DNA from: Dehalococcoidia bacterium
GTDB lineage: Bacteria > Chloroflexota > Dehalococcoidia > Lucifugimonadales > UBA3495
Direction: 5' to 3'
Assembly: GCA_965201145.1 (NCBI GenBank)
Contig: CBDAVT010000001.1
Location: forward strand, 70,889 to 134,888
Length of the DNA stretch: 64,000 bases
Made by a program: the position numbers and the translations under genes. Shown piece by piece: positions 1,780 through 64,000 of this stretch; position 1 is the stretch's first letter; every line of letters starts with the position of its first letter. The notes below the pieces were generated by a model. That model had not been told where the DNA came from and did no database searches. It saw only the letters and a list, made by a program, of their open reading frames with translations.

Positions 1780-2880
1780 ATGTTTTTCCGCAGCTGGGCA
1801 GCAATGTTGGCGGTCATCGGGAGTTTAACGGCGATTAGCCTGACCGCCTGCGGCGGGTCAACTGCCGAGGAATCCAGCGCTCCGGGCGCCGTCGCGGCGG
1901 CGGCTTTAGCCGGTGAAATCCCGGAAGCGAGCTACGCCAGCGCCGCCGAAGCAGCCCTGGCATTTATAGATACTCTTTCCATCGAACAGCGCGAGCGAGT
2001 CATCTACGAACTTGACGTCCCGGTCCGAGCCAACTGGTCCAATCTGCCCGCCAGCATGGTGAACTTTGAACGCAACGGGGTCCGCATCGGCGACCTGGAC
2101 ACGCAGCAGCGGCGGGCAATGCACGACTTTCTGGCAACCGCCCTCAGCCCGGCCGGGTTTGCCACCGTTTTGGGCATTGCCGGGGCCGATGGTGAAGCAG
2201 GAAGCTCGTTACTTGACCGAATGAATTTCCTGAGTTGGAGCGAAGCGGATTTTTGGCTGGCCTTCTTCGGCGAGCCTGCGGAGACCGCTCCCTGGGGGTG
2301 GCAGTTCGGCGGGCATCACCTGGCGGTGAACGTAACCTTCGCCGGAGGGAGCAGTTATATGTCCCCCACATTTCTCGGGATCGAACCGGCCAGTTATAGC
2401 AACTCCGGCGCCACTATTGAGCCCCTGTCCCCGCACACCGGGGCCGGCTTGGCTTTAGTACGCTCCCTTAGTGTAGAATTGCGGGAAGCCGCCACTGTCG
2501 CCGAGCGTCCCGGGGAGACCTATACCGGGGCCGGCAAAGACGGGGTAATCCCCAAAACGGAAGGCTCAAGAGTTGCCGACTGGCCTCCGGAGCGGCAAGC
2601 CAAACTACTGGAGCTGGTCAGTCTCTGGCCCGGTCTGCTGCCGGAACCAGACGCAAAAGCGCGACTTGCGGAAATCGAAGCAGACTTAAACGACCTCTAT
2701 TTTGCCTGGCACGGCCCGACGGACGGCGCCGGAGCAATATACTACCGGATTCAGGGGCCTTCCCTGATAATTGAATTTTCTACCCAGGGCGACCTGGACC
2801 CGCAAGGTGGACACTATCATTCAGTTTACCGCGACCCAACTAACGAGTACGGAAGACGAGTGGTCGCATCCGGTTTCTAA
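1780..2880 (+). CDS. DUF3500 family lipoprotein
   Basis: The ORF is 1678..2880. I place the start at the internal ATG 1780, which gives a signal peptide with lipobox (LTAISLTAC). The WGWQFGGHHLAVNVTF motif matches what I recall of DUF3500. Confidence 0.7.
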   Translation: MFFRSWAAMLAVIGSLTAISLTACGGSTAEESSAPGAVAAAALAGEIPEASYASAAEAALAFIDTLSIEQRERVIYELDVPVRANWSNLPASMVNFERNGVRIGDLDTQQRRAMHDFLATALSPAGFATVLGIAGADGEAGSSLLDRMNFLSWSEADFWLAFFGEPAETAPWGWQFGGHHLAVNVTFAGGSSYMSPTFLGIEPASYSNSGATIEPLSPHTGAGLALVRSLSVELREAATVAERPGETYTGAGKDGVIPKTEGSRVADWPPERQAKLLELVSLWPGLLPEPDAKARLAEIEADLNDLYFAWHGPTDGAGAIYYRIQGPSLIIEFSTQGDLDPQGGHYHSVYRDPTNEYGRRVVASGF

Positions 2881-2906
2881 AGTCAAAGAGAAGTGAGGCG
2901 CTGAAA

Positions 2907-3998
2907 ATGCACGTCGGACTAGTTATGGAATGTGACTATCGTATGGGAGTAACTCAGGAAGAGGCCTTTAACGAAGCCTTTGCAATGGCCGAGACCGCCG
3001 ACGAATACGGGTTGGACGGAATCTGGCTGGCCGAACGCCATTTCGCGGCGCCCCGCCGGCCCGGCGACCCTATGGGCGCCGGCATCCCGTCGGTAGTTTC
3101 GGTGCCGCTGGTCATGGCCAGCGCCATCGCCGGCCGCACCAAACAGGTTCGCATTGGCACCGGAGTCAGCGTACTGCCCCTGTGCCACCCGGTAAGGTTG
3201 GCTGAGGAAGCCGCCACCGTGGACCAGGTTAGCCGGGGAAGGCTGGAATTCGGAGTGGGCCGCAGCGGATTCCCACGCTCTTATGACGGCTACGGAATAC
3301 CTTACGGCGAGAGTCGAGGCCGGTTTCAGGAAACCCTGGACGTGATTTTGAAGGCATGGGCGGAAGACCGATTTTCCCACGAAGGCGAGTTTTTCCAGTT
3401 CAATGACCTTTGCGTCCTGCCCAAGCCCTACCAGAAGCCGCATCCGCCGATCCGCATCGCGGCGACCACCCGGGATACCTTCCCGGCAGTGGGCCGCAGC
3501 GGGCACAACGTAATCTCCGGCCTGCGGGGTTTCGATGTGAACGAAGTCGAAGAGCATATGCAGATATACCACGAAGGCCGGGCCGAGGCGGGACACGAAG
3601 GCAAGGGTGAAATTTTCCTCCGGGTCCCCATCTACGTAGCCGAAACCGACGCCCAGGGCATCGCCGACCCCGAAGAAAGTACGATGCGGTCCTACCGCCG
3701 CCTCGGCGGGCTGTTCGGGGCATCCGCCAGCGCCTCGGGTACCACCATCTCCGAAGAACGCCGGGAGCGGTCGGAACGATTAGCCAACGTCACCTATGCC
3801 GACCTGCTGCAAGACCGGCTGGCCTACGGCAGCCCGGATACCGTCGTTGAAAAGCTGGTTCAGCTAAAGGAACGAATCGGCCTGGACGGGATAATTATGG
3901 AGCCGAATGTGGGCGGCGGCCTGACCGTGGCGCAGGTATTGAATTCGGTGCGGCTGTACGCTCAGGAGGTTGCGCCCCGGCTTCGCCAAGCCGCCTGA
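2907..3998 (+). CDS. LLM-class (luciferase-like) flavin-dependent oxidoreductase
   Basis: 363-aa ORF with YGLDGIWLAERHF and a GRLEFGVGRSG-type pattern typical of luciferase-like monooxygenases. Confidence 0.85.
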   Translation: MHVGLVMECDYRMGVTQEEAFNEAFAMAETADEYGLDGIWLAERHFAAPRRPGDPMGAGIPSVVSVPLVMASAIAGRTKQVRIGTGVSVLPLCHPVRLAEEAATVDQVSRGRLEFGVGRSGFPRSYDGYGIPYGESRGRFQETLDVILKAWAEDRFSHEGEFFQFNDLCVLPKPYQKPHPPIRIAATTRDTFPAVGRSGHNVISGLRGFDVNEVEEHMQIYHEGRAEAGHEGKGEIFLRVPIYVAETDAQGIADPEESTMRSYRRLGGLFGASASASGTTISEERRERSERLANVTYADLLQDRLAYGSPDTVVEKLVQLKERIGLDGIIMEPNVGGGLTVAQVLNSVRLYAQEVAPRLRQAA

Positions 3999-6477: not shown

Positions 6478-6494
6478 GGAAACCCTGATCATCC

Positions 6495-6529
6495 CCCCTC
6501 TCCTTGTGGGAGAGGGGCCGGGGTGAGGG
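6495..6529 (+). repeat. REP-like palindromic element (CCCCTCTCC-N5-GGAGAGGGG-CCGGGGTGAGGG)
   Basis: Hairpin followed by a G-rich tail, 3' of the Mo-oxidoreductase gene. Same family as the copies at 9045-9346 and 50406-50678. Confidence 0.8.
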
Positions 6530-6686
6530 TGTGTGTGAGACCGGGGGTAAGGGCAAATCGATAAATTTGGTCAAAAAATGACAGCAGACACTCTTTGGCC
6601 CGCTACTCAATTACGGCTATAGTTTAGAAAAATACCGGAAGGCCACTGGCTGCCGGGCAGACAAATTTACATCGCGAGGATCTGTC

Positions 6687-8884
6687 ATGGAAAAGTTTCC
6701 CAAATTCACCAACTTGTGGCCCCGGCTGCTGGGCATCGGGGTCCTGGCTTTAGCCCTGCTGCTCTTTTCTACTGTTGCGGTGGCAAACGTCACCCTGGCT
6801 CAGGACGGGGGCGGAACGCAGGAAGAAGAGGAGGCGCCCACCTGTCCGGTGGAGGGAGGCAGCCTGGAATGTGACCGGCAAGCCCTCATCGCCTTTTATA
6901 ATGCGACCGACGGCGATAATTGATGCAACAACGAAGGGTGGAAGGACGATGAAGGCAACTTCAACCCAATCGACAAGTGGCACTGGAATACCGTTTCTTT
7001 CAACAGTCGCGACCGGGTTGACTGGATCAACATGGCGAATGGTCAAGGCTGTGATTCCAAGACCGGGAACAACCTGAACGGTACCCTGATCGACGAGTTA
7101 GGCTGGCTGAATAACGTAAAAACTTTCCACGTTTACGGCAACCCGAAGCTGACCGGCTCGCTCCCGGTAGGAATGAGCAGCATGGGCGCCATGGGGAATA
7201 TGTCTCTGCAGCATAACGGTCTCAGCGGCAGCATTCCCGAGAAATGGAGTGATATGCAGTGGTTGCATGAAATCGAACTCTTTAATATGGGATTGACCGG
7301 CGCTTGGCCCTCGGAATGGGACGATCTGCATCAATTGTGGGTACTCAAAGTTCACGGGAATCAATTGACCGGCAACCCCTTCAGCGAAGACCACGTGATG
7401 GATAATCTGTTTCTAGTGCAGGTCCATGCCAACAAATTCAGCGGCGAGATGCCCAATTGGCTGGGCAAGAAAGCTGCCAACGGCGAACTTTATATGCTTC
7501 ACTGGTACAGCAATGACGGCTTGTGCGCGCCCGATAACACCGACTAGCGCACCGCCCTGCTTCAACCGAAGTGGAAGATAAACGGCCCGATGTGCCCGCT
7601 GCCGGGTGTCGCCCAATCCGGCACCTCCAAGCCATCGGAAACCAAGACGGTTACCACCAAATGGCCCGACGAGACGGCTTTGGAGGTCGTTCTTTCCGTG
7701 TCCACGGACAAGAAGCCTACTTATGACCACGCCGACACCCAGACTAAAAATCCCGGCGTTACTATTACCGCGGCGCCGGAGCTTTCCGACATCGGCAAAT
7801 ATGGCGGAACCCGCACCCTCACCTTTTCCCGCACCGGACACAAGGACATCAAGGTTCACTGGCGCACCTCGGGAGAGTACGACACCACTGACAAGTACGG
7901 AATTTCCATTTCCATCGAAGACTTGAACCTTGCGCCGGATCCGACGCCGACGCCCACGGGTACGCCCACGCCGACAGCTACGGCCACACCGACGCCGACG
8001 GATACGCCAACGGCTACGGCTACTGCTACGCCGGCCCCGACAGACACCCCAACGCCGGCCCCAACGGATACACCCACGCCTACGGCGACCTCAACGCCGG
8101 CCCCAACGGATACGCCCACTCCCACCTCGGCGCCGAATAATCCGGCGGAGTTGATTAGCCCCTTCAGCGACATCGAGTTGTATCATGGCGCTACCAGCGA
8201 CCTGGATATGACCAGCCACTTCAGCGGCGACGGTCTGTCCTACGAAGTGATGGTTACTACCACCCACCAGGGTACCGGCGCGGTGAAGACGGGACTGCTG
8301 AACCAGGTGGCCGTCACAAGGTCACCGGTACCTGGAGCGGAAGCGTCCTGACCCTGCTCGGGGGCCCGGCGGCGCTGCAGGAGTTGACCCTGAAAATCAC
8401 CGCCACCGACCAGAACGGCGGCTCCGCCAGCGACTCCTTTACCCTGGCCCTGGTTGCCGAGCCAACGCCTACCCCGGCGCCGACGTCCACGCCACCGCCG
8501 ACAAGCACACCGACGTCCACACCGCCGCCAACGAGCACACCGACGTCCACTCCGAGTAACCCGGTAAACTTGATTAAGGCTTTCGAAGACATCGAGCTGT
8601 CCGAGGATGACACTAGCCAACTGGATATGACCGACCACTTCAGCGGCAGCTCCCTGACCTATGAGGTGATGGTGACCACGACGCACCAGCGTACCGGGGA
8701 GGTAAGGAGCGGCCTCATCAACACGGTGGCCCGGAACAAGGTCTCCGGCAGTTGGAGCGGCCAGGTTCTGACCCTGACCGGCGGCCCGGCCGTATCCCAG
8801 AATTTGACCATCAAGATAACCGCATCCAACGCTAATGGAAACTCGGCCAGCGACGAGTTCACTATGGCCCTGGACAACGACTAA
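6687..8884 (+). pseudogene. secreted LRR / PT-linker / tandem Ig(cadherin)-like-domain surface protein, disrupted
   Basis: One frame runs 6687-8351 with in-frame TGA (6921-6923) and TAG (7545-7547). A 1-nt loss in a C-run near 8311 shifts into the frame ending at 8884. It has a signal peptide, LRRs (NxLxGxxP), Pro/Thr linkers and two ~105-aa C-terminal domains. Confidence 0.75.
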
Positions 8885-8940
8885 CCGCGCCGAAGCGACT
8901 GCCCCCGGCGGCGCTAAACCGGAAGCCAGCATAGCCAGAA

Positions 8941-8973
8941 GGGTCTATCCCCGGATGTTCCGGGGATAGACCC
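8941..8973 (+). terminator. perfect 14-bp-stem hairpin 3' of the disrupted surface-protein gene
   Basis: GGGTCTATCCCCGG-ATGTT-CCGGGGATAGACCC followed by TTTCC. It may act as a terminator or belong to the local repeat array. Confidence 0.45.
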
Positions 8974-9044
8974 TTTCCATTTGTCAGCACCTTGGTTGGA
9001 ACTGGCGGGACCCGGGCGGCCAGACGGCCCAACCATTCCGGCAT

Positions 9045-9346
9045 CCCTCCTTCTCTCTCAGGGAGAGGGGCCGAGGGTGAGGGCTGTACTGGGGATAGAC
9101 CCTTCTACTTGTCAGCACCTTCCTTCGCAAGGTAGGAAACTGGCGGCCAGCACCCCAACCATCCCAACATCCCCCCGCTCCCCCAGGGAGAGGGGCCGGG
9201 GGTGAGGGCCAGCGGGCGACTCAACAACCATCCCAATACCTCCCCGCTCCCCCAGGGAGAGGGGCCGGGGGTGAGGGCCAGCGGGCGACTCAACAACCAT
9301 CCCAATACCTCCCCGCTCCCCCAGGGAGAGGGGCCGGGGGTGAGGG
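9045..9346 (+). repeat. array of four REP-like elements, including a 69-bp tandem repeat
   Basis: Cores end at 9083, 9208, 9277 and 9346. The 69-bp unit CCAGCGGGCGACTCAACAACCATCCCAATACC...GGTGAGGG is repeated from about 9209. The array lies between convergent genes. Confidence 0.85.
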
Positions 9347-9367
9347 CCAGCGGCCGGGCAAAAAAAT

Positions 9368-9402
9368 ACAGTCCCGCCGGGTAAGTAACCCGGCGGGACT
9401 GT
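9368..9402 (-). terminator. rho-independent terminator of the FN3 surface-protein gene
   Basis: 14-bp perfect stem (ACAGTCCCGCCGGG / CCCGGCGGGACTGT) with a 7-nt loop. A T-run follows on the minus strand (A7 at 9360-9366 on plus). Confidence 0.7.
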
Positions 9403-9435
9403 CGCATTGCCGACCTTCTCTCGATTCCCCTTGCG

Positions 9436-11697
9436 TCAACCGGAGTTGTCCAGGGTAAATGTGAACTCGTCGCTGGCCTCCCCGCCGTACTGGTCGGTGG
9501 CGGTGATTTCGACGGTCAGCTCCTGGGAGGCTGCCGGGCCGCCAGTCAAGGTCAGGACGCTGCCATTCCACTCACCGGACACCTTGTTGCGGGCCACCGT
9601 GTTGATGAGCCCGCTCTTGACCACCCCGGTAATCTGGTGCGTCGTCGTCACCATCACCTCATAAGTCAGACCGTCGCCGCTGAAATGGGCCGCCATATCC
9701 AGGTTGACGGTCTCACCTCCCGACAGTTCAACATCGTCGAAGTCGCTGATCAGCTCCGCCGGGTTCTGCGGCGTCGGCTCCGGGGTGGGTTCCGGGGTCG
9801 GGGTCGGCGTCGCCGTCGGTTCCGGCGTCGGCATTAGCGTAGGCACTGGTGTTGGTTCCGGCGTCGGTGTGGACGTCGGTTCCGGGGTTGGCGTAATGGT
9901 CGGCTCCGGCGTCGGCATTAGCGTAGGCACTGGTGTTGGTTCCGGCGTCGGCTCCGGGGTGGGTTCCGGCGTCGCCGTCGGCTCCGGCGTCGGTGTGGAC
10001 GTCGGTTCCGGGGTTGGCGTAGTGGTCGGCGTCGGTGTGGACGTCGGCTCCGGCGTCGCCGTCGGCTCCGGTGTTGGTACGGTTGTAGGTTCCGGCGTCG
10101 CCGTTGGCGTCGCCGTCGGCTCTGGCGTTGGTACGGTTGTAGGTTCCGGCGTCGCCGTTGGCGCGGTCGTCGGGGCCGGCGTTGGCGTGCTGGTGGGACC
10201 CGGCTTTGGCGTTGGCGGCGGCAGAGGCGCGGCAACCAGCGTCAGCAGGAAGGAGTCGCTGACCAGGCTCCCGGATTCGTCGGTGGCGATAATCTTCAGA
10301 GTCAGTTCCTGCAACGGAGCCGGCCCTCCCTTAAGGGTCAACGTCGCGTCATTCCAGGAACCCGTTACCTTGTTGGTAGCTATCGTATTGAGCGCGTCGG
10401 TCTTCACCTCTCCGGTTCGCTGGTGCGTCGTCGTTACTATCGCCTTGTAGGTCAGCCCGTCGCCGCTGAAATGCTCCGTCATATCCAGTTCGATAGTTTC
10501 GCCGTCATAGAGCTCAATATCGTCAAACTCGGCGATGAGTTTCAGGGTAGGCGCCTGAGGCGTGCCGACGATGGTGTTGGACCAGTCGCCGCCGGGCTGC
10601 CCCGCCGCCAGCATACGCACCCGGAAGGAGTAGGCCATGCCGTTGGTCAACCCATCAATGGAAGTTTCCATGCTTTGCACGGTCTGCGAACCGCCGTCAG
10701 CCCAGGTCTCACCTTCCACCGTGTACCCCACTTCGTAAACCGTTGGAGGCGCCGGCGCAGGAGCCGTTGGAGCCGGCGCATTATTACTGCTGGCGAAGCT
10801 ACGAATGTTGGCGGCCGCACTCTTCAGGGACACCAGGCTCTTGAGGGAAGCGCCCTCGCCCTCGGCTCCGCTCTCTTCAGGCGCTTCCCAGGACAGCGTA
10901 ACCTTGCCGTTGCCCGGAGCAATACCCAGCCCGGTAGGGGGCGCGCCGAAGCCGACCAGATTTGGGGAAACCGTATTAGAGCTGGCAGCCCAGTAATCCG
11001 TCCCGTCGCAGCGCGCGCCGACTTCCACGTCATAGGCGGCGCCGCTGGTCAACCCATCGATTGTGTGCGGGGAAGTGGCAGCGTCGATTGTCGTCCACGA
11101 GGACGAGCCGGATTCCCGGTAGCGCACCTTATGCTGCGCCGCGCCGCCGACATCGGTCCAGGTGACCGTCAGCTCGCCCGCATTCGAGCCCGTCGCCACG
11201 GACACGCCGGTAGGCTGCGCCGACTTGCCGGTCGTTCCCTCGATGAAGTTGGAGTACCCGGTCAAATTCTTGCCGCCAACCGAAGAGATGCCGCCAAGGA
11301 TGATGAGATACTTCGTGTTAGGCGCCAGATTTGTCATGTCGTCCGGGCTGGTAGGCGAGAAATTTTGCCCGGTCTCAATCAAGCCCAGTTCGTCGATCAC
11401 GTGTGCACTAATATCGGTCAGGGTCTTGCCCGCAGGATTTGTCCAGCTGACTTCGAAACCGCACGCGTAGGTGTTTGCGATCTGGATACTCTCCGGGCCT
11501 GGGGCCGGGGTGATCAAATGGCTCGCCGCCCACACGTAATACTGGCTGCCGTCTGCTGCGGTCAAGCTTGCCGAACCGATCTGCACCTGGTAGTTGGTTC
11601 CATTGATCAAGCCGGTCGCCCGGTAGTTGTCGATACTCGACGTGGTCACAATTGTCCAGGCGCCGTCTTTCGCAGTGGTGTCTATACGGTAGCGCAC
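9436..11697 (-). CDS. giant FN3-repeat surface protein, C-terminal part (frame-shifted continuation of 11682..13916)
   Basis: The 753-aa ORF holds FN3 repeats (Y.VRYR...W...T), an Ig/cadherin-like domain, a ~155-aa PT(E) linker and a second Ig-like domain. Upstream of the annotated start the frame still reads [19 protein letters not shown], which is the middle of an FN3 repeat. Confidence 0.85.
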
Positions 11698-13916
11698 TGC
11701 GCTTTCAGCGAAGCCCTTGCCGGGGGTCCAGCGCGCATTGAACCGCCGTCGGTGTGGAAGAGAATCACATCCGTCGGCTTCCCGAAGGGCTTGCCGTCCA
11801 CTGGTCCCTCGATCTTTGGAGACTGCCGCCCGGCGACGGAGTACACCCGCACCTCGTAATCGATGCCGTTTTCCAGATTATTGATGTACAGGTCGATTTC
11901 CGGGCTGATTTCGTATGTGATCCACTCCTGCGTGTTCTTCTTTCGATACTGAACCGTGCTGCGCAGGGTCCCGCTGCCGTGTTTGTAACTGACGTACAGA
12001 CGGCCATCGCGGGGCTCGACGATTAGGCCCGTCGGCGCATTGAAGGGCGTCACCAAAATCTTGTCGGGCGTCCAGTGCGTTTCTATCGGCGGGCCGTTGT
12101 ACACTGCGGCGACATCGATCCAGTACGTCGTTCCGTTGGTCAGACCGGTGATCGTATAGGTCTGCTCAGTCCCGGCAGCCGGGGCGACCGTCGCTGTACG
12201 AGGGGTGTTGGTGGGGGCGCTCTCGTGATTCCACCAGCGCACCGTGTAGGAGTTCACCGTATCCGTGCTCTCCGGACTCTGCCATTTCAGCACAATTTCG
12301 GCATCTCCCGACACGCCGCGCAGGTTTCGGGGAGATTTTGCCGTGGCTGCCGATACCGTAATAACCTCGGAGCCGCGGTGATAATCAGCCGGCGGCTCTG
12401 AGTCGGCATCTCTGAACAGAGCAAACACCCGAACTTCATGGTTCTCGTTGGGCAGCAAATCACCTATTTCGAACATCAATCGATCGGCATTGCCGGCAAC
12501 CGGCTTCGCTTCTGTGCCCACTGACGTCCATGGCTCTGGGTTGTCCGGGTCATCCGCTATCTCTCGAATGATCAATTTGTAGCCATCGGCGTCATCTACC
12601 TTGTCCCAGGACACCGTAAGGTCTGCCGTCTCAGCGTCCGAAGTGGCTGCGATCAGCGACGCTGTGATTTCGGTAGGAGCCGGCGCGACCTGGAAATCAG
12701 GGCCATCGACCCAGCGCGTCGTCCCAGCGCGGACAGCGCCTACCTGCAGTTCATATTCATCGAGTACCGACAGCCCTTCCAGCTCATACGGGGTCGATCC
12801 GTAAGCTTGCCGCCATGCGCCGTTCGAGGACTTCAGGCGATACCTGATTGTATGGCTTGTGACGCCATCGCCTTTAGTCCAGCGCACGGTCAACTTGCCG
12901 TTGTCGGCTTGTGTTGTTATGTCCTCGAGCTGCACATTCGCGGGCTTCCCCAGCGGCGTCCCGATACGCGGACTTGTCCACAGGATTTCGCCGTTGAGCA
13001 TAGCGCCGACTTGTACCTGATACGTGGTGCCGTTGCTCAAACCTTCGATGTAGTGCCGCCGGCTGACGTCTTCGATTCTGATGTTTTCAAAGATTCCCCC
13101 CAGAGGGCGGTATTCGAGGACGTGGGACACCAATTCACCGGGCGCATTGGTCCAATAGACCTTCAATTTGCGGTCGGCGGAGACCACATCAAGGCCGCTC
13201 GGCGGCTCGAAGGGTATCGCTTCTATCTGCTCGGACCAGTGGGTCATTGCCGGGGTGGGCGGCGACGCGCTCGTATCTTCGTCGAACACCGCGCCCACCT
13301 GCACGGCATGAGTAAGGTGATTGTCCAGGACGGACAGCGTGTCGCGGCTGCTCATCGCCTGGCCCTCCGCATTGGGCTTCCACTCAAAGGGATTTTCCGG
13401 CGCCGACTGGCGGTACCGCACCACATACGAATCGGCGTTGGTCACGGCGGTCCAGCTCACCCGCAGGCTGCCGGAGCTGTTGGGAGTAACGGTGACGCCG
13501 GTGGGAGCATTAGGCGAAAGGGGAGTGGCATAGGTCGTCCCCACAATCTCCCCGCCATTCACAAAGGCACGGACCGTTATCTTGTACGTCCGTCCGTTGA
13601 CGAGAGAGGAAATAGTATGTGGCATCGTGAGGGTATCCACCGGGTTTTCCGGGAGATGGGTGACCGAGCCGTCTATCGTATCGGTATAGGTGATGCCGTA
13701 GCGGGTTTCGCTGGTCCCTTTCGGCCAGCTCCAGTTTACTTCGAGGGCAGTATCACCCGGGGTAGCGGTGACCGCGGACTGCTCCTGGGGGTGCGCCTGC
13801 CGGGACCAGGAAAGGAGCACCGTCTCCAGATGCCCGGCCAACAGCGCCGTAGGCACCATCGCAGTTGCCAGAACCGCCAGGATCAACCAGGAACGCAGCC
13901 TGTTTCTCATATCCAA
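11682..13916 (-). CDS. giant FN3-repeat surface protein, N-terminal part with signal peptide
   Basis: 744-aa ORF with GGAGG 9 nt upstream of the ATG and an N-terminal signal/TM segment. It carries at least 7 FN3-like repeats. It ends in out-of-frame sequence after a 1-nt loss in a T-run near 11741. Confidence 0.85.
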
Positions 13917-13953
13917 TATCCTCCCCAGTTACACACACGGGGGGGGGGGGGGG

Positions 13954-14136
13954 CAGGGCTATCGCATATGAAAAATTTTCAGGATGAGAACGGAACTTTC
14001 CGATGTTTTGGCGGCGCTTTACTGGGTAATCAACATCAAAACCAACGGTTTAAGTCTTAAATTACCCAAATTTAGCAGTTAAAAACGGAGATTTAACCGT
14101 CAATTGGCCTCTTAAAATCCATATGCGATAGCCCTG
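13954..14136 (-). mobile_element. 183-bp MITE, copy 1 (inverted orientation), flanked by G15/G17 tracts
   Basis: Termini are CAGGGCTATCGCATATG ... CATATGCGATAGCCCTG. It is near-identical to the other copies and has an AT-rich interior. Confidence 0.9.
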
Positions 14137-14500
14137 GGGGGGGGGGGGGGGGGACTAACTGCCTTTGGCAAACCCTTAATCCGGCGCTGCCGCAATTCCG
14201 ATTGAGACATTGACAAACTGGCAGTTAACCCCAACCTTTGGGGCCCCCACCTCCACCGGTGCGATATATACGAGGCCGGGTTTCGCCGGGTACAGTACAC
14301 CCCGGAAACCCGGAGGAAGAACAAGGCGGCTAATTGAAGGTTCGGGCTGCTCATTCGCAGGCCCGCCCGGTAAAAGCGCAGGCTGTTCATTACCCGGTAA
14401 GGCCCGAGGCAAGCTGAACCGCCCACAAGTTGAAATGTGTCAAGCTCATATATTTGAGACCATTATATATTCTCGATGAGCGTTAACCTGCCCGGTAATA

Positions 14501-14680: not shown

Positions 14681-15598
14681 CTAGCTTTGGCGCACGAACT
14701 TTACCACCGTTCGGCCCTGACTCCCTTCGTAAGGTTCCACCACGTACAGGTCCTTGTGGGAGTCAACCCAAATGCCGTGGCAGGAACGGTGCGTCATTGA
14801 ACCCCATTGGGTCAGCATTTCCCCCTCCAGGTTAAGGATACTCACCAGCCCGCCATTGTGTTCGGCCACATATACGGTATCCTCATCATCTACGTACATT
14901 ACCGCCGGGCCAATCAGCTTAACCGGGAAATCGGTCAGATGCTCGCCGTCCTGGTCGAAAACCTGAATGCGGTCATTTTCCCGGTCGGCAATCAGCAGGC
15001 GGCCCCGGGGGTCGATCCAGGCGCCGTGGGGAAGGTTGAACTGGCCGGGGCCGGAACCGGGCCAGCCCCAGGATTTAATCAGCTCCCCTTCCGGGGTGAA
15101 CTTGTGCACCCGGGCGTTGGCGTAACCGTCGGCGATAAAAATTTCTCCCGCTTCGTTAACGGCAATTCCCGCCGGGAGGTTGAAAGGCTCCGCGCCCCGC
15201 ACTACGTCCGGCCAGGCATTGGAACTGAATACCGAATTGTCCACGCCCGTATCGGAACGGTAGCCCTTGGTGCCGATGGTCATCAGCAATTCACCTTCGG
15301 CGGTAAACTTCATTATTTGCCCATCGTTTCGCTCCACCAGCCAGACATTATCGTGGGAATCGATAAAGATGGCGTGGGGGAACAGGAAAATCCCGGCGCC
15401 CCAGGAATTAAGGTAGTTGCCTTCCCGGTCGAAAATCATCACCGGATGCTCCGGGTCCCGGTTGAAGCAATAGACCCGGTCCTGGGAGTCTCCATAAACG
15501 GCGGCGGCGGGCATAGCCCAACCCTCCGGCACTTTGGCCCAGTCAGTGTGCATTTCGTAAGTGTATTTCCCACTGCCGACGATGGCTCTGGTCGTCAC
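14681..15598 (-). CDS. NHL-repeat six-bladed beta-propeller protein
   Basis: The ORF is 14681..15730. NHL-type repeats are present (ADRENDRIQVFD, YVAEHNGG.VSI). I prefer the GTG at 15598, 6 nt after AAGGAGG; ATG 15631 is an alternative start. Confidence 0.75.
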   Translation of the reverse strand: MTTRAIVGSGKYTYEMHTDWAKVPEGWAMPAAAVYGDSQDRVYCFNRDPEHPVMIFDREGNYLNSWGAGIFLFPHAIFIDSHDNVWLVERNDGQIMKFTAEGELLMTIGTKGYRSDTGVDNSVFSSNAWPDVVRGAEPFNLPAGIAVNEAGEIFIADGYANARVHKFTPEGELIKSWGWPGSGPGQFNLPHGAWIDPRGRLLIADRENDRIQVFDQDGEHLTDFPVKLIGPAVMYVDDEDTVYVAEHNGGLVSILNLEGEMLTQWGSMTHRSCHGIWVDSHKDLYVVEPYEGSQGRTVVKFVRQS

Positions 15599-15738
15599 GG
15601 CGCGCCTCCTTAAGGGTGTATTTGCATCCATTCGCTGCGGTAAAGATAGCCCGGCCCTGATTATGACAATAACCCAAGTGCAGGTCAAATGACGGTGAAA
15701 CCCGGCGCTGTCCGGGTGTCCCGCTCTCACCCCCCTAG

Positions 15739-15921
15739 CAGGGCTATCGCATATGGATTTTAAGAGGCCAATTGACGGGTAAATCTCCGTTTTTAACTGC
15801 TAAATTTGGGTAATTTAAGACTTAAACCGTTGGTTTTGATGTTGATTACCCAGTAAAGCGCCGCCAAAACATCGGAAAGTTCCGTTCTGATCCTGAAATT
15901 TTTTCATATGCGATAGCCCTG
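15739..15921 (+). mobile_element. 183-bp MITE, copy 2
   Basis: Perfect 17-bp TIRs, flanked by the 10-bp direct repeat ACCCCCCTAG (15729-15738 and 15922-15931). Confidence 0.93.
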
Positions 15922-16024
15922 ACCCCCCTAGCCGCCGGGCTGTTGGCTGACGCTGCTTTGGGTTAAACTAACGCGGTTCAGCCCACGAAAACATCCATGC
16001 CACCGGCAAGTCAGGAGGGACATT

Positions 16025-16280: not shown

Positions 16281-17639
16281 ATGGTGGAACTTCACGCCCT
16301 CAGCGCCAACGATGCCGCCGCGCAGATTCGCGACGGTAACCTCTCACCCGGCGCCTACGCCAGCGCCCTGCTGGAACGGATTGACGACTGGGAACCGGAC
16401 TTGCAAGCCTGGGTAACCATCGACCGGGAAGCGGTTATGACCGACGCCCGCCAGCGGGAACGGGAAATAGCCGACGGCCAACCCTCCAGTCTAATGCCCG
16501 GGGTGCCGGTGGCCCTGAAGGACATTTTCTATACGGCGGGAATGGCAACCACGGCCTGCTCCCGGATTTACGCCGATTTCGTACCTCAATACGATGCTAC
16601 CTGCGTAGCCAAACTGAAGGAAGCCGGCGCAATCGTCCTGGGCAAGGCGGTTACCACCGAGTTCGCCACCTCCGACCCGTCGCCCACCCGCAACCCCTGG
16701 AATCGGGAACACACGCCGGGCGGCTCCAGCAGCGGATCAGCGGTGGCAGTGGCATCGGGAATGGCCCCGGCGGCGCTGGGATCCCAGACCGGCGGCTCCA
16801 CCTGCCGGCCCGCCGCCTACAACGGCATCGTCGGCCTGAAACCGACCTACGGCCGCATCAGCCGGTACGGGGTGGTGCCCGTCAGTTGGTCCCTGGACAC
16901 GGTGGGCATTCTGGTACGCACCGTCACCGATGCCGCCTTGCTGCTGCAGGTTATGGCCGGGTACGATGCCAAGGACCCCGGTTCGGCCGACGTGCCGGCG
17001 CCGGACTTTCGCCAGGAAATGTCGCGCCACGACCGGGCGCCCCGGCTGGGGCTATTAAAGCAAGGTTACTTCTTCGACCGGGTCACGCCGGAGGTGCGTC
17101 AGCATACCGAGACGATTGCGGCCCAACTGGCCCAGGCCGGGGCAGCCATTGAAGAAGTGGCTCTCCCGGACAGCTTCGCCACCGCGCCGGACGTGCAGCG
17201 AATTATTATGAACGTGGAATGCGCCGCCTTCCACGAGCAATTCTTCCGCCACCGGGCCGACGAATACGGCCCCAGGCTCCGGGCCAACATCGAAATGGGG
17301 CTGTTGATTCCCAGTGTAACCTACTTGCAGGCGCAGCGGCTTCGCCGGGAGTTTCGGCGGGACCTGACCGAGTTGGCCGAGTCGGTGGACGCCCTGCTGA
17401 TGCCGGCAACTCCGGCCCCGGCGCCTCGGGACTTGAACACTACCGGGGACGCCGCCTTTCAGGCTCCCTGGACCTCCGCCGGCCTGCCGACGCTGGTAAT
17501 TCCTTCCGGTTTAAGCGAGTCGGGGCTGCCGCTGGGAATACAATTGGCCGCTCCGCCCTTTGCCGAGGGGCAACTGCTGGGAGCAGCCCGCTGGTGTGAA
17601 AGGGCCTTGGGGATAACTTTAAGTCCGCCGGGATTTTAG
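16281..17639 (+). CDS. amidase-signature family amidase (GatA-like)
   Basis: The ORF is 16050..17639. I chose the start at ATG 16281, after GGAGGA. The amidase signature GGSSSGSAVAVA and the Ser-cisSer-Lys context are present. Confidence 0.85.
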   Translation: MVELHALSANDAAAQIRDGNLSPGAYASALLERIDDWEPDLQAWVTIDREAVMTDARQREREIADGQPSSLMPGVPVALKDIFYTAGMATTACSRIYADFVPQYDATCVAKLKEAGAIVLGKAVTTEFATSDPSPTRNPWNREHTPGGSSSGSAVAVASGMAPAALGSQTGGSTCRPAAYNGIVGLKPTYGRISRYGVVPVSWSLDTVGILVRTVTDAALLLQVMAGYDAKDPGSADVPAPDFRQEMSRHDRAPRLGLLKQGYFFDRVTPEVRQHTETIAAQLAQAGAAIEEVALPDSFATAPDVQRIIMNVECAAFHEQFFRHRADEYGPRLRANIEMGLLIPSVTYLQAQRLRREFRRDLTELAESVDALLMPATPAPAPRDLNTTGDAAFQAPWTSAGLPTLVIPSGLSESGLPLGIQLAAPPFAEGQLLGAARWCERALGITLSPPGF

Positions 17640-33997: not shown

Positions 33998-34424
33998 CTA
34001 ACGTTGGGAACTCTGGAAGATGGCCTCTCGCAGTCCGTCCAGTAGCCCGTCCAAATGGGCCAGACGCTCCCGCATTGCCGCCAGTTCCCCGTCGTGGCTG
34101 TCCATCCTGGATTCCAGCTTGTCAAAACGCAAGTCCTGTCGCCGTTCCAGCACGGTTATCCGCTGATCCATCCTGGTTTCCAGCACGGTTCATCCGCTCA
34201 TCCATTCGGGCTTCAAAAGCGTCGAAGCGCTCATCCATTCGGGCTTCAAAGGCGTCGAGGCGCTGGTCCATCCAAACTTCAAAAGCGTCGAAGCGATGGG
34301 CAGTCCGGCTTTCGGCGTTGTCAATACGCTGACCCAAACGATGGGTGGTAGTCAGCATCAGGGCCACCAACACACCGAAGGCAGTAATTCCCGCACCAAG
34401 AACTGCGATCATATCCGGCGACAT
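33998..34424 (-). pseudogene. membrane-anchored coiled-coil repeat protein, one frameshift
   Basis: An N-terminal TM helix is followed by 11-aa repeats R[FL]DAFEARMDE. The 34122..34424 frame shifts into the 33998..34186 frame at an extra A (plus-strand TT at 34189-34190). Confidence 0.55.
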
Positions 34425-50389: not shown

Positions 50390-50405
50390 GGCGCAAGCCT
50401 CTTGG

Positions 50406-50678
50406 CCCTCACCCCCGGCCCCTCTCCCTGGGGGAGAGGAGAGAGCTTGTTCCTGGGCGTGTTCGCGCATAGTCAGAAATTACATCCTCTGAAAAAGCGG
50501 GAATAGTCAGCGGCTTTCCTCTCCCAAGCAACGTGAAGAAACTACTCTCCCCTCTCCTCGCGGGAGAGGGGCTAGGGGTGAGGACTTCCCAGCACATAGG
50601 TCAGGATTCACCCTCCCCCAAGCAACGTGAAGAAACTACTCTCCCCTCTCCTCGCGGGAGAGGGGCCGGGGGTGAGGG
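50406..50678. repeat. cluster of three REP-like elements (one inverted) with a ~100-bp tandem duplication
   Basis: Cores lie at 50406-50440 (reverse), 50549-50583 and 50643-50678. The unit ...CAAGCAACGTGAAGAAACTACTCTCCCCTCTCCTCGCGGGAGAGGGGC... is duplicated. Confidence 0.85.
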
Positions 50679-50719
50679 CTTCCCCGACACATACTTGACC
50701 GCAGGGGGATAGAAAAGGT

Positions 50720-50793: not shown

Positions 50794-52545
50794 CTAGTTC
50801 TTCAGGGACAGGGTGAAGGAGCCACTGGCTTCCTCCCCAGCCGCGTTGCTGGCGATTATCTGGATGGTCAGATCCTGGGAGGCTGCCTTGCCACCCTCCA
50901 ACGTCAGCACCGACCCGTTCCAGCTTCCCGACACCTTGTTGCGGGCAATCTCACCCAGCTTGCCGGTCTTCTGCCTCCCGGTCTTCTGGTGGGTGGTGGT
51001 TACCATCACTTCGTAGGTCAGGTTGTCGCCGCTGAAGTGATTAGCCATGTCCAGGTCGCTGGTCTCCCCCTGGCTGAGTTCGATGTCCCCGAAGGGGTTG
51101 CTCAGCGCTGGCCTTTCCGGCGCGGGTTCCGGAGTAGGTTCCGGCGTGGGCTCGGGAGTCGGCTCCGGAGTGGGTTCCGGGGTCGGCTCCGGCGTCGGTT
51201 CCGGGGTAGGTTCCGGGGTCGGCGCCGCCGTGCCGCCCACGGTCAGTTGGAAGGAGTCGCTGGCCGATTCGCCGGCGCCATCGGTGGCGATGACTTCCAC
51301 CTGCAGGACGTGGTCGCCCTTAGCCCCGGCGGTCAGGGTCAGGACTTCGCCGTCCCACTCGCCCCGCACCTTGTTCCGAGCCACCTCGTTCAGGTTCCCA
51401 ATCTTCACCACCCCGGTCCGCTTGTGGGTAGTAGTTACCTTCACCTGGTAGGTCAGCCCCTCGCCGCTGAAATGCTCCGCCATGTCCAGGGACTGCTCTC
51501 CGCTATTCTCCAGGGTCAGGTCGGCGAACTCCTGAATCAACTCCGTCGGTTCGGTCAGCCCGAACACCTGCCCCACCGGGTAATGGTTCAGCCGGATCGA
51601 GAATCCCCGCCGGTCGTCCCAGACCCCGTACAGGGTCTGCATCCCGTACCCTTCCCGGTAGAACATCATTTTGGCCCGATGTTCCCAGACATTGCCGCCC
51701 GTGCTGTAGGCCGCGTCCGAATGGGCGCTGATGCTGGCCGGGTCCACCGTGACCTTGCCATCGGCATAGGTCAGGGTCATCGAAACTTCCCCACCGGCCC
51801 AGTCATAACTCAAGGTCTCGGTAGTGGGCTTGTAGTCAATCTCGTAGTAGATGCCGTAGTCGGCATCGTAGTACCAGTTCAGGGTCATGCCGTTCTGACC
51901 CGGCCGGTGGAACTCCAGCGACCGCCAGTTCTCGTACCGGTCCAGCCAGCCGCTGTCGTGGTACTCTACCGTCGTTTCCGCCGCTACCGCGCTGTCGTGG
52001 GTCAGGTTGTTGTAGGTCAGCTTGTTGTCGTCGTCCAGGTGCAGGTCCACGTTGATGTGCTTCCCGTCGCTCCACTCCAGCAAGGCGCTGGTGGACGTGA
52101 TGGGCGTGTCCGTCTGGGAAGTGGGCGGGTTCGGGTTCCGCTGCTCATCGCAGTACAGGCCCCAGTGGATGTTCCAGGTGCACTCGAAGAGGGCGTCCCC
52201 GTAGCCCGGCCGCTCGAACCGGATGTAGTTGAAGGTCGTCGCTCCGTTGCGGTGCACCCGGTACCGGAAGGTGGCTTCCGTGTCTTCCCCGTGGCTGATG
52301 CTCTGCGAGGCCAGCTCCGAATGCCGCATCCCATCGTGGTAGAACCGGAAGGAGAACTCCTCCCCATCGCCCCACTGGCCAGTTACCGTCTTGTTGGCAT
52401 CCTGCCGCTGAATCTGGTAGTACAGTCCCGCTTCCGTGTCGTAGTACACCGTCAGGTAGATGGGTCGTAGTTCCCCTGGTCGTACTGCTTCTTCACCACG
52501 ATGGTCTCGAAGGTCGAGTCCTCCATGTAGGAGAAGAACACCCAC
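50794..52545 (-). CDS. secreted repeat protein, C-terminal part (W-x-D-G repeat modules, Ig-like domain, PTE linker, Ig-like domain)
   Basis: 583-aa ORF. Its first ~27 residues are out-of-frame read-through. The true frame joins 52452..53138 at a 1-nt loss in a C-run (plus-strand GGG at 52462-52464). Confidence 0.85.
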   Translation of the reverse strand: MGVLLLHGGLDLRDHRGEEAVRPGELRPIYLTVYYDTEAGLYYQIQRQDANKTVTGQWGDGEEFSFRFYHDGMRHSELASQSISHGEDTEATFRYRVHRNGATTFNYIRFERPGYGDALFECTWNIHWGLYCDEQRNPNPPTSQTDTPITSTSALLEWSDGKHINVDLHLDDDNKLTYNNLTHDSAVAAETTVEYHDSGWLDRYENWRSLEFHRPGQNGMTLNWYYDADYGIYYEIDYKPTTETLSYDWAGGEVSMTLTYADGKVTVDPASISAHSDAAYSTGGNVWEHRAKMMFYREGYGMQTLYGVWDDRRGFSIRLNHYPVGQVFGLTEPTELIQEFADLTLENSGEQSLDMAEHFSGEGLTYQVKVTTTHKRTGVVKIGNLNEVARNKVRGEWDGEVLTLTAGAKGDHVLQVEVIATDGAGESASDSFQLTVGGTAAPTPEPTPEPTPEPTPEPTPEPTPEPTPEPTPEPAPERPALSNPFGDIELSQGETSDLDMANHFSGDNLTYEVMVTTTHQKTGRQKTGKLGEIARNKVSGSWNGSVLTLEGGKAASQDLTIQIIASNAAGEEASGSFTLSLKN

Positions 52546-60752: not shown

Positions 60753-61523
60753 TCAGTCCACCAAACGATCTATTCTCTGAATTGATAGCGCCTTGCCGGT
60801 GTCAACGTCCACCTCTACCAGGACGGAGTTGAGCATCACCGGCCCCCGGGCTACCGAGAGACGCTGGGGCAGCCCGGTCAAGAACCTTTCCAGCACGGCG
60901 TTGGTATCGCTGCCGATTACCGAGTTCACCGGCCCGGTCATGCCAACGTCGGTCAAGTAGGCCGTGCCTTTGGGCAGAATCCGGGCATCTACCGTGCCAA
61001 CGTGGGTGTGGGTTCCCAGGACGGCGCCAACCTTGCCGTCCAGATACCAACCCAACCCCTGCTTTTCCGAAGTCGCCTCAGCGTGGAAGTCCACGAGTAT
61101 GACCCGGGGAGCATACTCGGCGATTGCCTCCGCCAGGAGGACGCTGGCGGTGCGAAAGGGGCAGTCCAGCGTAGGCATAAACACTCGACCCATCAAGTTA
61201 AGCACCATTACGCCGTCCTGAACCAGATACCCGCGCCCCGGCGCATCCGGGTAATTGGCCGGCCGGATTAGCGGCAGTCCCTCATCCATGTGGGGGATAA
61301 TATCCTTCTGATCCCAGATGTGATTGCCTGAGGTCAGAATGTCCACCCCGCTCTCCAGCAGTTCTTCTGCGGTTTCCAGCGTGATACCAAAACCGCCGGC
61401 CACATTCTCGCCATTGGCCACTACCAGATCGACACCCAGTTCCTCCCGCAGGTCGGGCAGTACCCGGCGTATCGCCTGCCGGCCGGGCTGACCGATAATG
61501 TCTCCGATCATCAAGATTCGCAA
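60753..61523 (-). CDS. ymdB: YmdB-type (TIGR00282) metallophosphoesterase
   Basis: MRILMIGDIIGQPG and VVANGENVAGGFG. It uses a TTG start and sits next to rny, the conserved pairing. Confidence 0.9.
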   Translation of the reverse strand: MRILMIGDIIGQPGRQAIRRVLPDLREELGVDLVVANGENVAGGFGITLETAEELLESGVDILTSGNHIWDQKDIIPHMDEGLPLIRPANYPDAPGRGYLVQDGVMVLNLMGRVFMPTLDCPFRTASVLLAEAIAEYAPRVILVDFHAEATSEKQGLGWYLDGKVGAVLGTHTHVGTVDARILPKGTAYLTDVGMTGPVNSVIGSDTNAVLERFLTGLPQRLSVARGPVMLNSVLVEVDVDTGKALSIQRIDRLVD

Positions 61524-61542
61524 GCTAACTTCCTTCCGGCCA

Positions 61543-61725
61543 CAGGGCTATCGCATATGGATTTTAAGAGGCCAATTGACGGGTAAATCTCCGTTTTTAA
61601 CTGCTAAATTTGGGTAATTTAAGACTTAAACCGTTGGTTTTGATGTTGATTACCCAGTAAAGCGCCGCCAAAACATCGGAAAGTTCCGTTTTGATCCTGA
61701 AAATTTTTCATATGCGATAGCCCTG
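61543..61725 (+). mobile_element. 183-bp MITE, copy 3
   Basis: Perfect TIRs, flanked by the 10-bp direct repeat CTTCCGGCCA (61533-61542 and 61726-61735). It lies 19 nt upstream of the ymdB start. Confidence 0.93.
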
Positions 61726-61935
61726 CTTCCGGCCAACACCGTCGGGGCATTGGCGTCTGAGTAACCGCGCGGGAGGCTTTCATTCCCGTCCCACTGCGCC
61801 CTTGGGCTGCCGCCAAAGCAAGGAAAGCAACAGGCCCAAGCGCCCAATTACCGGCGCTCAGGCCCGACATCTGCGAAAATTCCGGCAAATCGAATATTGG
61901 CAAGTCGCGAAATGCCGATTCCAGCGGCAGCGCCA

Positions 61936-63468
61936 CTAACGGGCGATTTCCACATTCCGGGTTTCCCGTATCACCGTAACCTTAATCTGTCCCGGGAAAA
62001 CCAGGTCTTCTTCCACTTTGCGGGCAATGTCCCGCGCCAGCGAGGCCGAAGCAATATCGTCAATATCCGTGGGGTTTACCATGACTCTTACTTCGCGCCC
62101 GGCCTGAATTGCGAAAGCCCGGTCCACACCCCCAAATCCGATGGCAGTATCTTCCAGTTCCCTCAGGCGCTTAACGTACTGGCCCAGGGACTCCTTACGC
62201 GCCCCGGGACGGGCGGCGCTGATCGCATCGGCGCTGGCGACAATGAATGACTCGATAGTCGAGTGTTCATCGTCGTGATGTTCCAGGATCGACAAGTAGG
62301 AGTTATGGTTAATTCCGTACTTTTTCGCCAGCTCGGCGCCAATTTCGGCGTGAGGCCCGGCGACTTCGTGGGTCAGGGCTTTCCCCAAGTCGTGGAGCAG
62401 CCCACCTATCTTGGCTACCTGAACGTTGGCGCCGATTTCGGCGGCCAGCATTCCGGACAGCAGGCAAACCTCGATCGAGTGCTTCAGGACATTTTCGCCG
62501 TAGCTGTAACGGTACTTCAACTGACCCAGCAGCCGGATCAGCTCCGGGTCGATACCGCTTAACCCGACATCGAAGGTAGATTGTTCACCGGCTTTCCAAA
62601 TGGTTTGCTCGATGTCCACCTGGGCCCGGTTTACCGTATCTTCAATACGGGCCGGCTGGATGCGGCCGTCGCTGACCAGCCTTTCCAGAGCTAATCGGGC
62701 CACTTCGCGCCTTACCGGGTCAAAGCAGGACAAAGTTACAATCTCCGGAGTATCGTCGATGACGATTTCCACTCCGGTCATGGCTTCCAGGGCTCTTATA
62801 TTCCGCCCTTCGCGGCCGATGAGACGTCCTTTCATCTCATCATTTGGCAGGGATACGATGGAAGTGGTAGTTTCCGACACTACGTCGGTTGCCAGACGGT
62901 TAATCGCCAGAGTGATTATGCGGCGGGCGTTCTCCTCGGCAGTCAGCTTGTATTCGCGCTCCAGGTCATAGGTACGGCGAGCGAGTTCATGCCTGGCTTT
63001 TTCCTCGCCTTCTTTTACTACCAGCTCTCTGGCATCTTCCACCGATAACCCGGCGGTTTCTTCCAGAGCCTTAACCTGCTGCTTCTTTAGCTCCTTCGCT
63101 TCCTCATAAGCTAGATCTACCTGGGATTCCTTTTCAGTAAGAGATGTCCGCTGCTTTTCCAGGGCTTCACTCTTACGTTCTAACTGCTCTTCCCGCTGTA
63201 GATAACGTCGCTCCAGGCGAGTAAGTTCCTGCCGTTGTTCCTTGATTTCCTGCTCGCCGGAAGTGCGCAACTTCAGCACTTCTTCCTGGGTTTCCAGAAG
63301 AATTCTCCGCCTTTCATCCTCCGCCTGCGCTACAACCGTACTGGCTTCTTCTTTAGCGCTTTCTACCCGCTTACCATCGACTCGGGAACGATAGACCAGC
63401 CACGAAGCGGCCCCGGTCCCGATTGTCCCTGCAACCGCCAGGACGGCAAGGAAAATTGTCAATTCCAT
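61936..63468 (-). CDS. rny: ribonuclease Y
   Basis: N-terminal TM, coiled coil, KH domain (GREGRNIRALE) and HD domain (LLHDLGKA). I chose the start at ATG 63468, after AAGGGAG. Confidence 0.93.
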   Translation of the reverse strand: MELTIFLAVLAVAGTIGTGAASWLVYRSRVDGKRVESAKEEASTVVAQAEDERRRILLETQEEVLKLRTSGEQEIKEQRQELTRLERRYLQREEQLERKSEALEKQRTSLTEKESQVDLAYEEAKELKKQQVKALEETAGLSVEDARELVVKEGEEKARHELARRTYDLEREYKLTAEENARRIITLAINRLATDVVSETTTSIVSLPNDEMKGRLIGREGRNIRALEAMTGVEIVIDDTPEIVTLSCFDPVRREVARLALERLVSDGRIQPARIEDTVNRAQVDIEQTIWKAGEQSTFDVGLSGIDPELIRLLGQLKYRYSYGENVLKHSIEVCLLSGMLAAEIGANVQVAKIGGLLHDLGKALTHEVAGPHAEIGAELAKKYGINHNSYLSILEHHDDEHSTIESFIVASADAISAARPGARKESLGQYVKRLRELEDTAIGFGGVDRAFAIQAGREVRVMVNPTDIDDIASASLARDIARKVEEDLVFPGQIKVTVIRETRNVEIAR

Positions 63469-63786
63469 TGAATCTCCCTTCCCTATTCCGTCTCGGCTCT
63501 GCAACAAGAGTTAAATCCTCGCTTGATTATCCTAACTAATAGATGTTAATAGTGTCAAGGAAGGGCATATCCGGGTATTCTTAATCTGAGGTGGAAATAG
63601 CTATATAAGGGGTGCGGTGAAATGGAATGAGGGGCTGCCTTCGGTGTGGCGAGGACGGCGGCGGCTGATGCGTCGGACCAGGGGATACATCAGGAAGGGG
63701 GAAATGCCGGCGTACCCCCTGGCCCTGCTATGCTGCCAGGGATGGCCCAAAACTTAATATCAACCAACATTAACAATACCCTGCGG

Positions 63787-63969
63787 CAGGGCTATCGCAT
63801 ATGGATTTTAAGAGGCCAATTGACGGGTAAATCTCAGTTTTTAACTGCTAAATTTGGGTAATTTAAGACTTAAACCGTTGGTTTTGATGTTGATTACCCA
63901 GTAAAGCGCCGCCAAAACATCGGAAAGTTCCGTTTTGATCCTGAAAATTTTTCATATGCGATAGCCCTG
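63787..63969 (+). mobile_element. 183-bp MITE, copy 4
   Basis: Perfect TIRs, flanked by the 10-bp direct repeat TACCCTGCGG (63777-63786 and 63970-63979). Confidence 0.93.
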
Positions 63970-63979
63970 TACCCTGCGG

Positions 63980-64000
63980 CAGGGCTATCGCATATGGAAT
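63980..64000 (+). mobile_element. 183-bp MITE, copy 5 (truncated by window end)
   Basis: CAGGGCTATCGCATATGGAAT begins immediately after the right-hand TACCCTGCGG of copy 4. Confidence 0.8.

Follow-up and report, generated by a model that had tools for sequence, protein, structure and literature searches.

The 183-bp repeat found in the window (the whole 64,000-nucleotide stretch of DNA that was analysed) is very probably a non-autonomous derivative of the ISAs1 family (a MITE) that resides in a Dehalococcoidia-like Chloroflexota and is mobilised in trans. In the model that we propose, the repeat would retain just two predicted transposase-binding ends around an unrelated fold-back core. The enzyme responsible would be a DDE transposase of the ISAs1 type from another part of the genome, presumably supplied in trans by a co-resident IS. 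It would bind both ends by recognising the 17-bp terminal inverted repeat (TIR) together with a few subterminal bases, and would place the element in a target cut with a 10-bp stagger, the repair of which would produce the 10-bp target-site duplication (TSD). The repeat is a new and well-documented member of an ordinary class, the MITEs, rather than a new type of element.

Anatomy of the element, its copies and their surroundings

Four full copies, each exactly 183 bp long, lie at the positions listed in the initial annotation (Table 1). They can be aligned without gaps, with 5 variable sites and pairwise identities of 97.8-99.5%, bearing out its statement that only a few SNPs separate them. 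The 17-mer CAGGGCTATCGCATATG constitutes the TIR; it is perfect at both ends of all four copies and carries an internal NdeI site (CATATG), again as described. Nine exact matches to this 17-mer occur in the window compared with 0.13 expected from dinucleotide-preserving shuffles, eight of them being the paired inverted ends of the four copies and the ninth the start of a fifth element. On each side, the TIR and 6-7 subterminal bases flank an AT-rich core of about 140 bp, the GC content of which is 36-38% vs 58.4% for the window, consistent with the AT-rich interior and GC-rich surroundings noted before. The element has no coding capacity, the longest stop-to-stop frame being 36 codons, and its earlier designation as non-autonomous is upheld. 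It is thus a short (183 bp, below the limit of about 600 bp for a MITE), non-coding sequence present as four near-identical full copies, as a MITE is expected to be.

Table 1. Positions in the window of the MITE copies, their flanks, neighbouring genes and the independent contigs that reach into the copies
Feature	Position	Strand	Remark
MITE copy 1	13954-14136	-	183 bp; inverted relative to the other copies, 97.8-98.4% identical to them
MITE copy 2	15739-15921	+	183 bp
MITE copy 3	61543-61725	+	183 bp
MITE copy 4	63787-63969	+	183 bp
Fifth element, first 21 nt	63980-64000	+	same 17-bp TIR (63980-63996), cut by the window end
Poly-G flanks of copy 1	13939-13953; 14137-14153		15 G (left); 17 G (right)
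TSD of copy 2	15729-15738; 15922-15931		ACCCCCCTAG
TSD of copy 3	61533-61542; 61726-61735		CTTCCGGCCA
TSD of copy 4	63777-63786; 63970-63979		TACCCTGCGG
Fn3-repeat protein gene	11682-13910	-	copy 1 upstream, 38 bp from the longest ORF and 44 bp from the ATG
NHL-repeat gene	14681-15598	-	divergent from the amidase gene, copy 2 in between
Amidase gene	16281-17639	+	divergent from the NHL-repeat gene, copy 2 in between
ymdB	60753-61523	-	borders the spacer that holds copy 3
rny	61936-63468	-	on the other side of the spacer with copy 3; copy 4 upstream
Contig L142	reaches 15765		copy 2, left junction
Contigs L125-L134	reach 61569/61570		copy 3, left junction
Contigs L115-L121, L135, L136	reach 61697/61698		copy 3, right junction
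Contig L135	reaches 63807		copy 4, left junction

The 10-bp direct repeats that had been reported at three copies (copies 2, 3 and 4) are perfect, and their sequences are unrelated to one another. Copy 1 is located inside a poly-G tract, so the identical 10-mers on its two sides are uninformative as a duplication; its arrangement implies a target of about 22 G before insertion, with a duplication of G10. The count of five copies held for the four full ones and for the presence of a fifth TIR, but the fifth element is cut by the end of the window and need not be biologically truncated. Since it differs from the MITE at the 20th base (GGAAT vs GGATT following the TIR), it may be either a variant copy of the MITE or a different element sharing its TIR. 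In a Dehalococcoidia MAG (L084), a MITE of a different type, 225 bp long, begins with the same 21-mer.

Copy 4 and the fifth element are arranged in tandem at 63777-64000 in the order TACCCTGCGG, copy 4, TACCCTGCGG, element 5, with a spacer of exactly one 10-bp target copy. Two insertions into one target, or a duplication via the 10-bp repeat, could have given rise to this arrangement. A second tandem of the form TIR-N(0-30)-TIR was absent from the 159 loci examined; locus L012 was considered as a candidate and rejected as a nested, degraded structure. The four copies are grouped in pairs: the members of one pair lie 1.8 kb and those of the other 2.2 kb from each other, and a gap of 45.8 kb separates the two. 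Such pairing has a p of about 0.014-0.04 under uniform random placement, and points weakly to local hopping or a regional preference.

The RNase Y encoded in the window is 89-92% identical to proteins of Chloroflexota MAGs and shares 73-80% identity with proteins that carry the label Dehalococcoidia or SAR202, from which the host is taken to be a Dehalococcoidia-like member of the Chloroflexota. Several repeats other than the MITE are also found there. A second family, at 6493-6531, 9046-9347 and 50403-50679, is built from a palindromic, GC-rich unit some 40 nt long (CTCCCCGCTCCCCCAGGGAGAGGGGCCGGGGGTGAGGGC) in both orientations, includes three 69-bp tandem units at 9143-9356 and has a REP-like look. 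Degenerate repeats with periods of 6, 12, 18 and 24 nt (for example ACGCCGACGCCCACGGGTACGCCC) occupy 7944-10520 and 50800-51490; they are common to both regions, which lie 41 kb apart and are inverted, and probably represent repetitive Thr/Pro-rich coding sequence of paralogous genes. The segment 24001-30000 has a GC content of 50-52% vs about 60% elsewhere and contains two direct-repeat pairs with a spacing of about 580 bp (25297/25869 and 25692/26285); an array or an island of foreign origin may be present here. At 34195-34293, a 33-nt unit is repeated three times in tandem with 82-100% identity. Comparison of the GGGAGAGGGGCCGGGGGTGAGGG repeat of the window with the Dehalococcoidia loci was taxonomically uninformative.

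Junction support and insertion polymorphism

Independent data were available as Logan short-read contigs from the run series SRR339910xx and SRR339605xx, which were found via the proteins of the flanking genes (exact-protein match). The contigs show 100% identity to the window and end 21-29 nt inside a MITE, as expected because repeats break the de Bruijn graph. Six of the eight MITE-flank junctions were reproduced in this way in independent short-read assemblies from more than 20 runs, and both junctions of copy 3 were seen among more than 15 Logan contigs. Copy 1 is the only copy whose two junctions are without such support. It also lies between the only homopolymers of at least 9 nt in the window, just upstream of the Fn3-repeat gene, and poly-G runs can arise from two-colour sequencing artefacts. 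On these grounds some or all of the repeats could be suspected of being assembly artefacts, namely a collapsed or mis-joined repeat, with poly-G read artefacts at copy 1. However, the contigs of those runs cross the boundary between flank and MITE with a 100% match at copy 2, on both sides of copy 3 and at copy 4, and poly-G next to the Fn3 gene recurs in contig L151, which is independent of the window. The insertions are not products of the assembly, and the chance that such an artefact accounts for some or all of the repeats appears minimal.

Contig L151 comes from the sample with an empty copy-2 site (SRR33960551) and has at least 18 G beside CGTGTGTG; at this position the window reads G15 and then CAGGG. 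The poly-G of the contig is compatible with an empty copy-1 site without proving one. The long poly-G near the Fn3 gene could represent a slippage-prone (phase-variable) promoter region or, alternatively, error-prone sequencing.

The empty allele of copy 2, an outcome that the initial annotation had proposed to look for, was found in contig L137 (equal to L141; SRR33960551, 3 samples). This contig extends across both the NHL-repeat gene and the amidase gene and jumps from window position 15738 to 15932, leaving a single ACCCCCCTAG with exactly 193 bp absent (183 + 10). Its two flanks agree with the window at 100% over 1187 nt and at 99.93% over 2790 nt. The filled allele, as in the window, was present in contig L142 (SRR33960554, 3 samples). 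The existence of both alleles indicates that the 10-bp repeat at copy 2 was created by the insertion, and the precision of the empty allele within flanks at least 99.9% identical indicates that the insertion is recent and polymorphic among near-identical genomes. The earlier proposals of transposase-made duplications and of recent mobilisation are thereby supported. We take the empty allele to be ancestral rather than the result of a precise excision. A composite transposon formed by copies 1 and 2 or by copies 3 and 4 was ruled out, since each copy has its own TSD, and it is further contradicted by the same neighbouring genes being present in the empty copy-2 allele.

The polymorphism also bears on the possibility that the copies are a structured repeat of the host (REP/BIME-like, a gene for a small RNA, or a hairpin with a regulatory role) that was not moved by a transposase. 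The 183-bp unit does fold as a long imperfect hairpin beyond shuffled controls (z = -5.1 to -7.2), and all four copies are intergenic, one of them in the rny-ymdB spacer, as such a repeat might be. By contrast, a REP/BIME-type repeat is characterised by the lack of a TIR plus TSD structure, and here TIRs, site-specific duplications and an empty allele are all present. Three copies have perfect, differing 10-bp duplications (copy 1 being uninformative), the empty allele at copy 2 is precise, and the ends of the element are identical to IS ends, as described below. Furthermore, Rfam returned nothing at gathering thresholds over the window and nothing on copy 3 even at E <= 1, a scan of copies 1 and 2 detected no promoter-like or terminator-like site inside either of them, and a sister species (L155; rny 81% identical in nucleotide sequence) has neither the TIR nor the MITE across the syntenic 21 kb. 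A host repeat is thus a very unlikely explanation compared with a transposed MITE, on top of whose nature a secondary domesticated role is possible.

ISAs1-family ends and the candidate mobilising transposase

ISAs1 elements have been described as having 14-22-bp inverted repeats starting with CAGGG and 10-bp direct repeats (PMC11946415), a description supported by ISArsp11, which ends in CAGGGCTGATGCAAAGTCG (PMC6305408). The MITE likewise starts with CAGGG, has a 17-bp TIR and shows a 10-bp duplication made on insertion. Scanning for the 17-mer with one genome per species yielded at least 114 loci, which, among the matches listed, are mostly from Alphaproteobacteria, with several from Dehalococcoidia and Chloroflexota MAGs. 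One of these, in a Dehalococcoidia MAG (L076; OY762251.1, locus positions 6498-7697), is a 1200-bp IS with the same TIR, a 10-bp TSD (ACCAGGGCGA) and a single ORF of 373 amino acids. The ORF product scored 384.8 bits on the NCBIfam model NF033564, 'ISAs1 family transposase' (cutoff 70), and contains the Pfam domains DDE_Tnp_1_assoc and DDE_Tnp_1. Its relatives numbered more than 7900 at E <= 1e-60, and some of them are labelled 'predicted transposase YbfD/YdcC'. Four further loci (L103, L091, L066 and L077) hold elements resembling this IS. Of the ISs found, the best parent type is a 1188-bp element (P0006) in the ENA assembly ERZ25072670, where it occurs as seven identical copies, five of them with perfect 10-bp TSDs; 24 nt of its end on the upstream side (IRL) and 23 nt of its end on the transposase 3' side (IRR) are the same as in the MITE. 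Beyond about 24 nt, similarity between MITE and IS is marginal, with one possible 36-nt alignment that requires a 4-nt gap.

Among named ISs, the nearest to the L076 transposase are ISAzs12 (55.7% amino acid identity) and ISRm21 (46.8%). The right end of ISRm21 equals CAGGGCTATCGCATATG at 17 of 17 positions, with a 10-bp TSD of CCGCGCGCGG, and ISAzs12 has CAGGG ends with a 10-bp TSD of CAAGGCGGAC. Judged by sequence, the termini of the MITE are ISAs1-family ends. The label 'unclassified' that they had received is accordingly replaced by ISAs1-derived, on account of the ISRm21 end and of the TIR-bounded ISs that encode an ISAs1 transposase; the longer element with the same termini and a transposase that was suggested as a check does exist, in other genomes (the L076 and P0006 ISs).

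A related question is whether the repeat could belong, as a MITE or a mobile cassette, to a different DDE family with duplications of about 10 bp (IS4/IS231-type, IS1634 or IS701) and be moved by the transposase of that family. Duplications of 9-12 bp are known among IS4-family elements, the Pfam domain DDE_Tnp_1 is common to the ISAs1 transposase and IS4-type enzymes, and the L076 transposase does give weak scores of 24-27 bits on IS4 and IS1380 models. These scores are, however, far under the cutoffs (24.3 bits on the IS4 model NF033592, with a cutoff of 115, which places the protein outside the IS4 family) and contrast with the 385 bits obtained by the transposase of TIR-bearing ISs on the ISAs1 model. 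In addition, no IS of another family bearing these ends appeared among the at least 114 TIR loci listed, and a CAGGG terminus combined with a 10-bp direct repeat is the published ISAs1 signature (PMC11946415). Mobilisation by another DDE family is thus extremely unlikely, and ISAs1 remains the family to which we assign the MITE.

An ISAs1 transposase gene was absent from the 64-kb window, where the best tblastn match had E = 0.35. When a partner transposase was sought in the same samples via P0013, P0047 and P0006, all three proved to come from other samples.

The position of the transposase stop codon offers a clue to the conservation of this end. In the IS end, the stop of the ISAs1 transposase takes up bases 6-8 (CTA on the element strand, TAG on the coding strand), and this stop and the five or six codons before it fall within the TIR (L076, 6498-6520). 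The C-terminus of the protein is conserved as ...QF[A/T][K/N][I/L][H/Q]MR among more than 100 homologues (P0001-P0120), in forms such as ...QFxKIHMR and ...QFANLQMR. The L076 IS end encodes ...KIHMR followed by the stop, and the MITE keeps a relic of the transposase frame, ...NWPLKIHMR followed by the stop. Because the stop and the last codons are inside the IS end, this end is constrained both as coding sequence and as a transposase site, and such coding overlap probably explains why one 17-bp end is common to two phyla.

By contrast with the ends, the core has no counterpart in the sequences searched. None of the at least 114 TIR loci listed matched the MITE core, the resemblance being limited to the ends; core or subterminal 23-26-mers of the MITE had 0 matches in two JGI metagenome scans, and blastn against PLSDB plasmids gave no match. 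That a single core without an IS match is common to all four copies indicates that the element spread as a MITE and not by repeated deletions. Independent internal deletion of a full IS at each site was ruled out for the same reason, the single core being unrelated to any IS. We consider it improbable that the core is a captured functional module, that the transposase targets the flank of an existing copy (as the tandem might suggest), or both. Such a module might be, for example, a structured RNA or a regulatory cassette that ISAs1 transposase has carried into the spacer of an operon and into several 5' regions. In the literature searched, ISAs1 is not described as targeting the flank of a copy already in place.

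Relation to other ISAs1 elements and to bacterial MITEs

Short elements of 140-400 bp that share this TIR, at least about 35 of them, were found in Bradyrhizobium, Mesorhizobium, Reyranella, Devosia and Dehalococcoidia MAGs (for example, L008, L014, L034, L045 and L084), and many have perfect 10-bp TSDs. Their cores are unrelated to that of the 183-bp MITE and, unlike it, are GC-rich (interior 46-70%, most 56-70%). The frequency of such elements across those genomes indicates that the phenomenon is general. A 745-bp internally deleted ISAs1 element at positions 2383-3127 of locus L067 (also in OY762251.1) has N- and C-terminal transposase fragments and two perfect TIRs, with no flanking 10-bp duplication, and is an intermediate between the full 1.2-kb IS and a MITE.

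Alphaproteobacterial ISs and MITEs with this TIR are centred on GC-rich palindromes, the target being, for example, CCCnnnnGGG inside CCCTCC...GGAGGG (L007, L034, L035, L050, L066, L071, L074 and L106, together with L158, which is ISRm21). This agrees with the reported association of ISRm21 with REP (PMC1525189). The copies in the window and those in Dehalococcoidia, by contrast, do not follow the alphaproteobacterial target pattern, and the targets in the window are non-palindromic.

The element provides a clean example of a currently mobile MITE in uncultured Chloroflexota, with filled and empty alleles coexisting in natural populations, and it is now tied to the ISAs1 family, the transposition of which is little studied. 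It could serve as a strain-level marker and as a minimal substrate for ISAs1 transposition, with 47 nt of ends in total, and it can account for the points at which contigs break when this organism is assembled from short reads. The recognition of one 17-bp end bounding many unrelated short elements in two phyla also helps repeat annotation, while the understanding of transposition itself is left unchanged.

CAGGG ends and a 10-bp duplication are common to the MITE and the ISAs1 family (ISAs1, IS1358, the ISEc1/H-repeat YbfD-YdcC proteins, ISRm21, ISAzs12, ISArsp11 and ISPmar4). The MITE differs from ISAs1 ISs by having no transposase and an unrelated AT-rich core, with only 23-24 nt per end in common. 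Among the full ISs found, the closest are elements of Dehalococcoidia MAGs and metagenomes, and the transposase of one of them (L076) is 47-56% identical to those of ISRm21 and ISAzs12. An ISAs1-derived MITE was not described in the literature that we searched, the coverage of which was incomplete, so that a description may still exist. Compared with known bacterial MITEs, such as Correia elements, RUP, the MaeMITEs of Microcystis and the Tn3-derived TIMEs, the 183-bp element is similarly small, non-coding, multi-copy and intergenic, and likewise has TIRs matching those of an IS, duplications typical of the family, a fold-back structure and insertion polymorphism among strains; it differs from them in its parent family.
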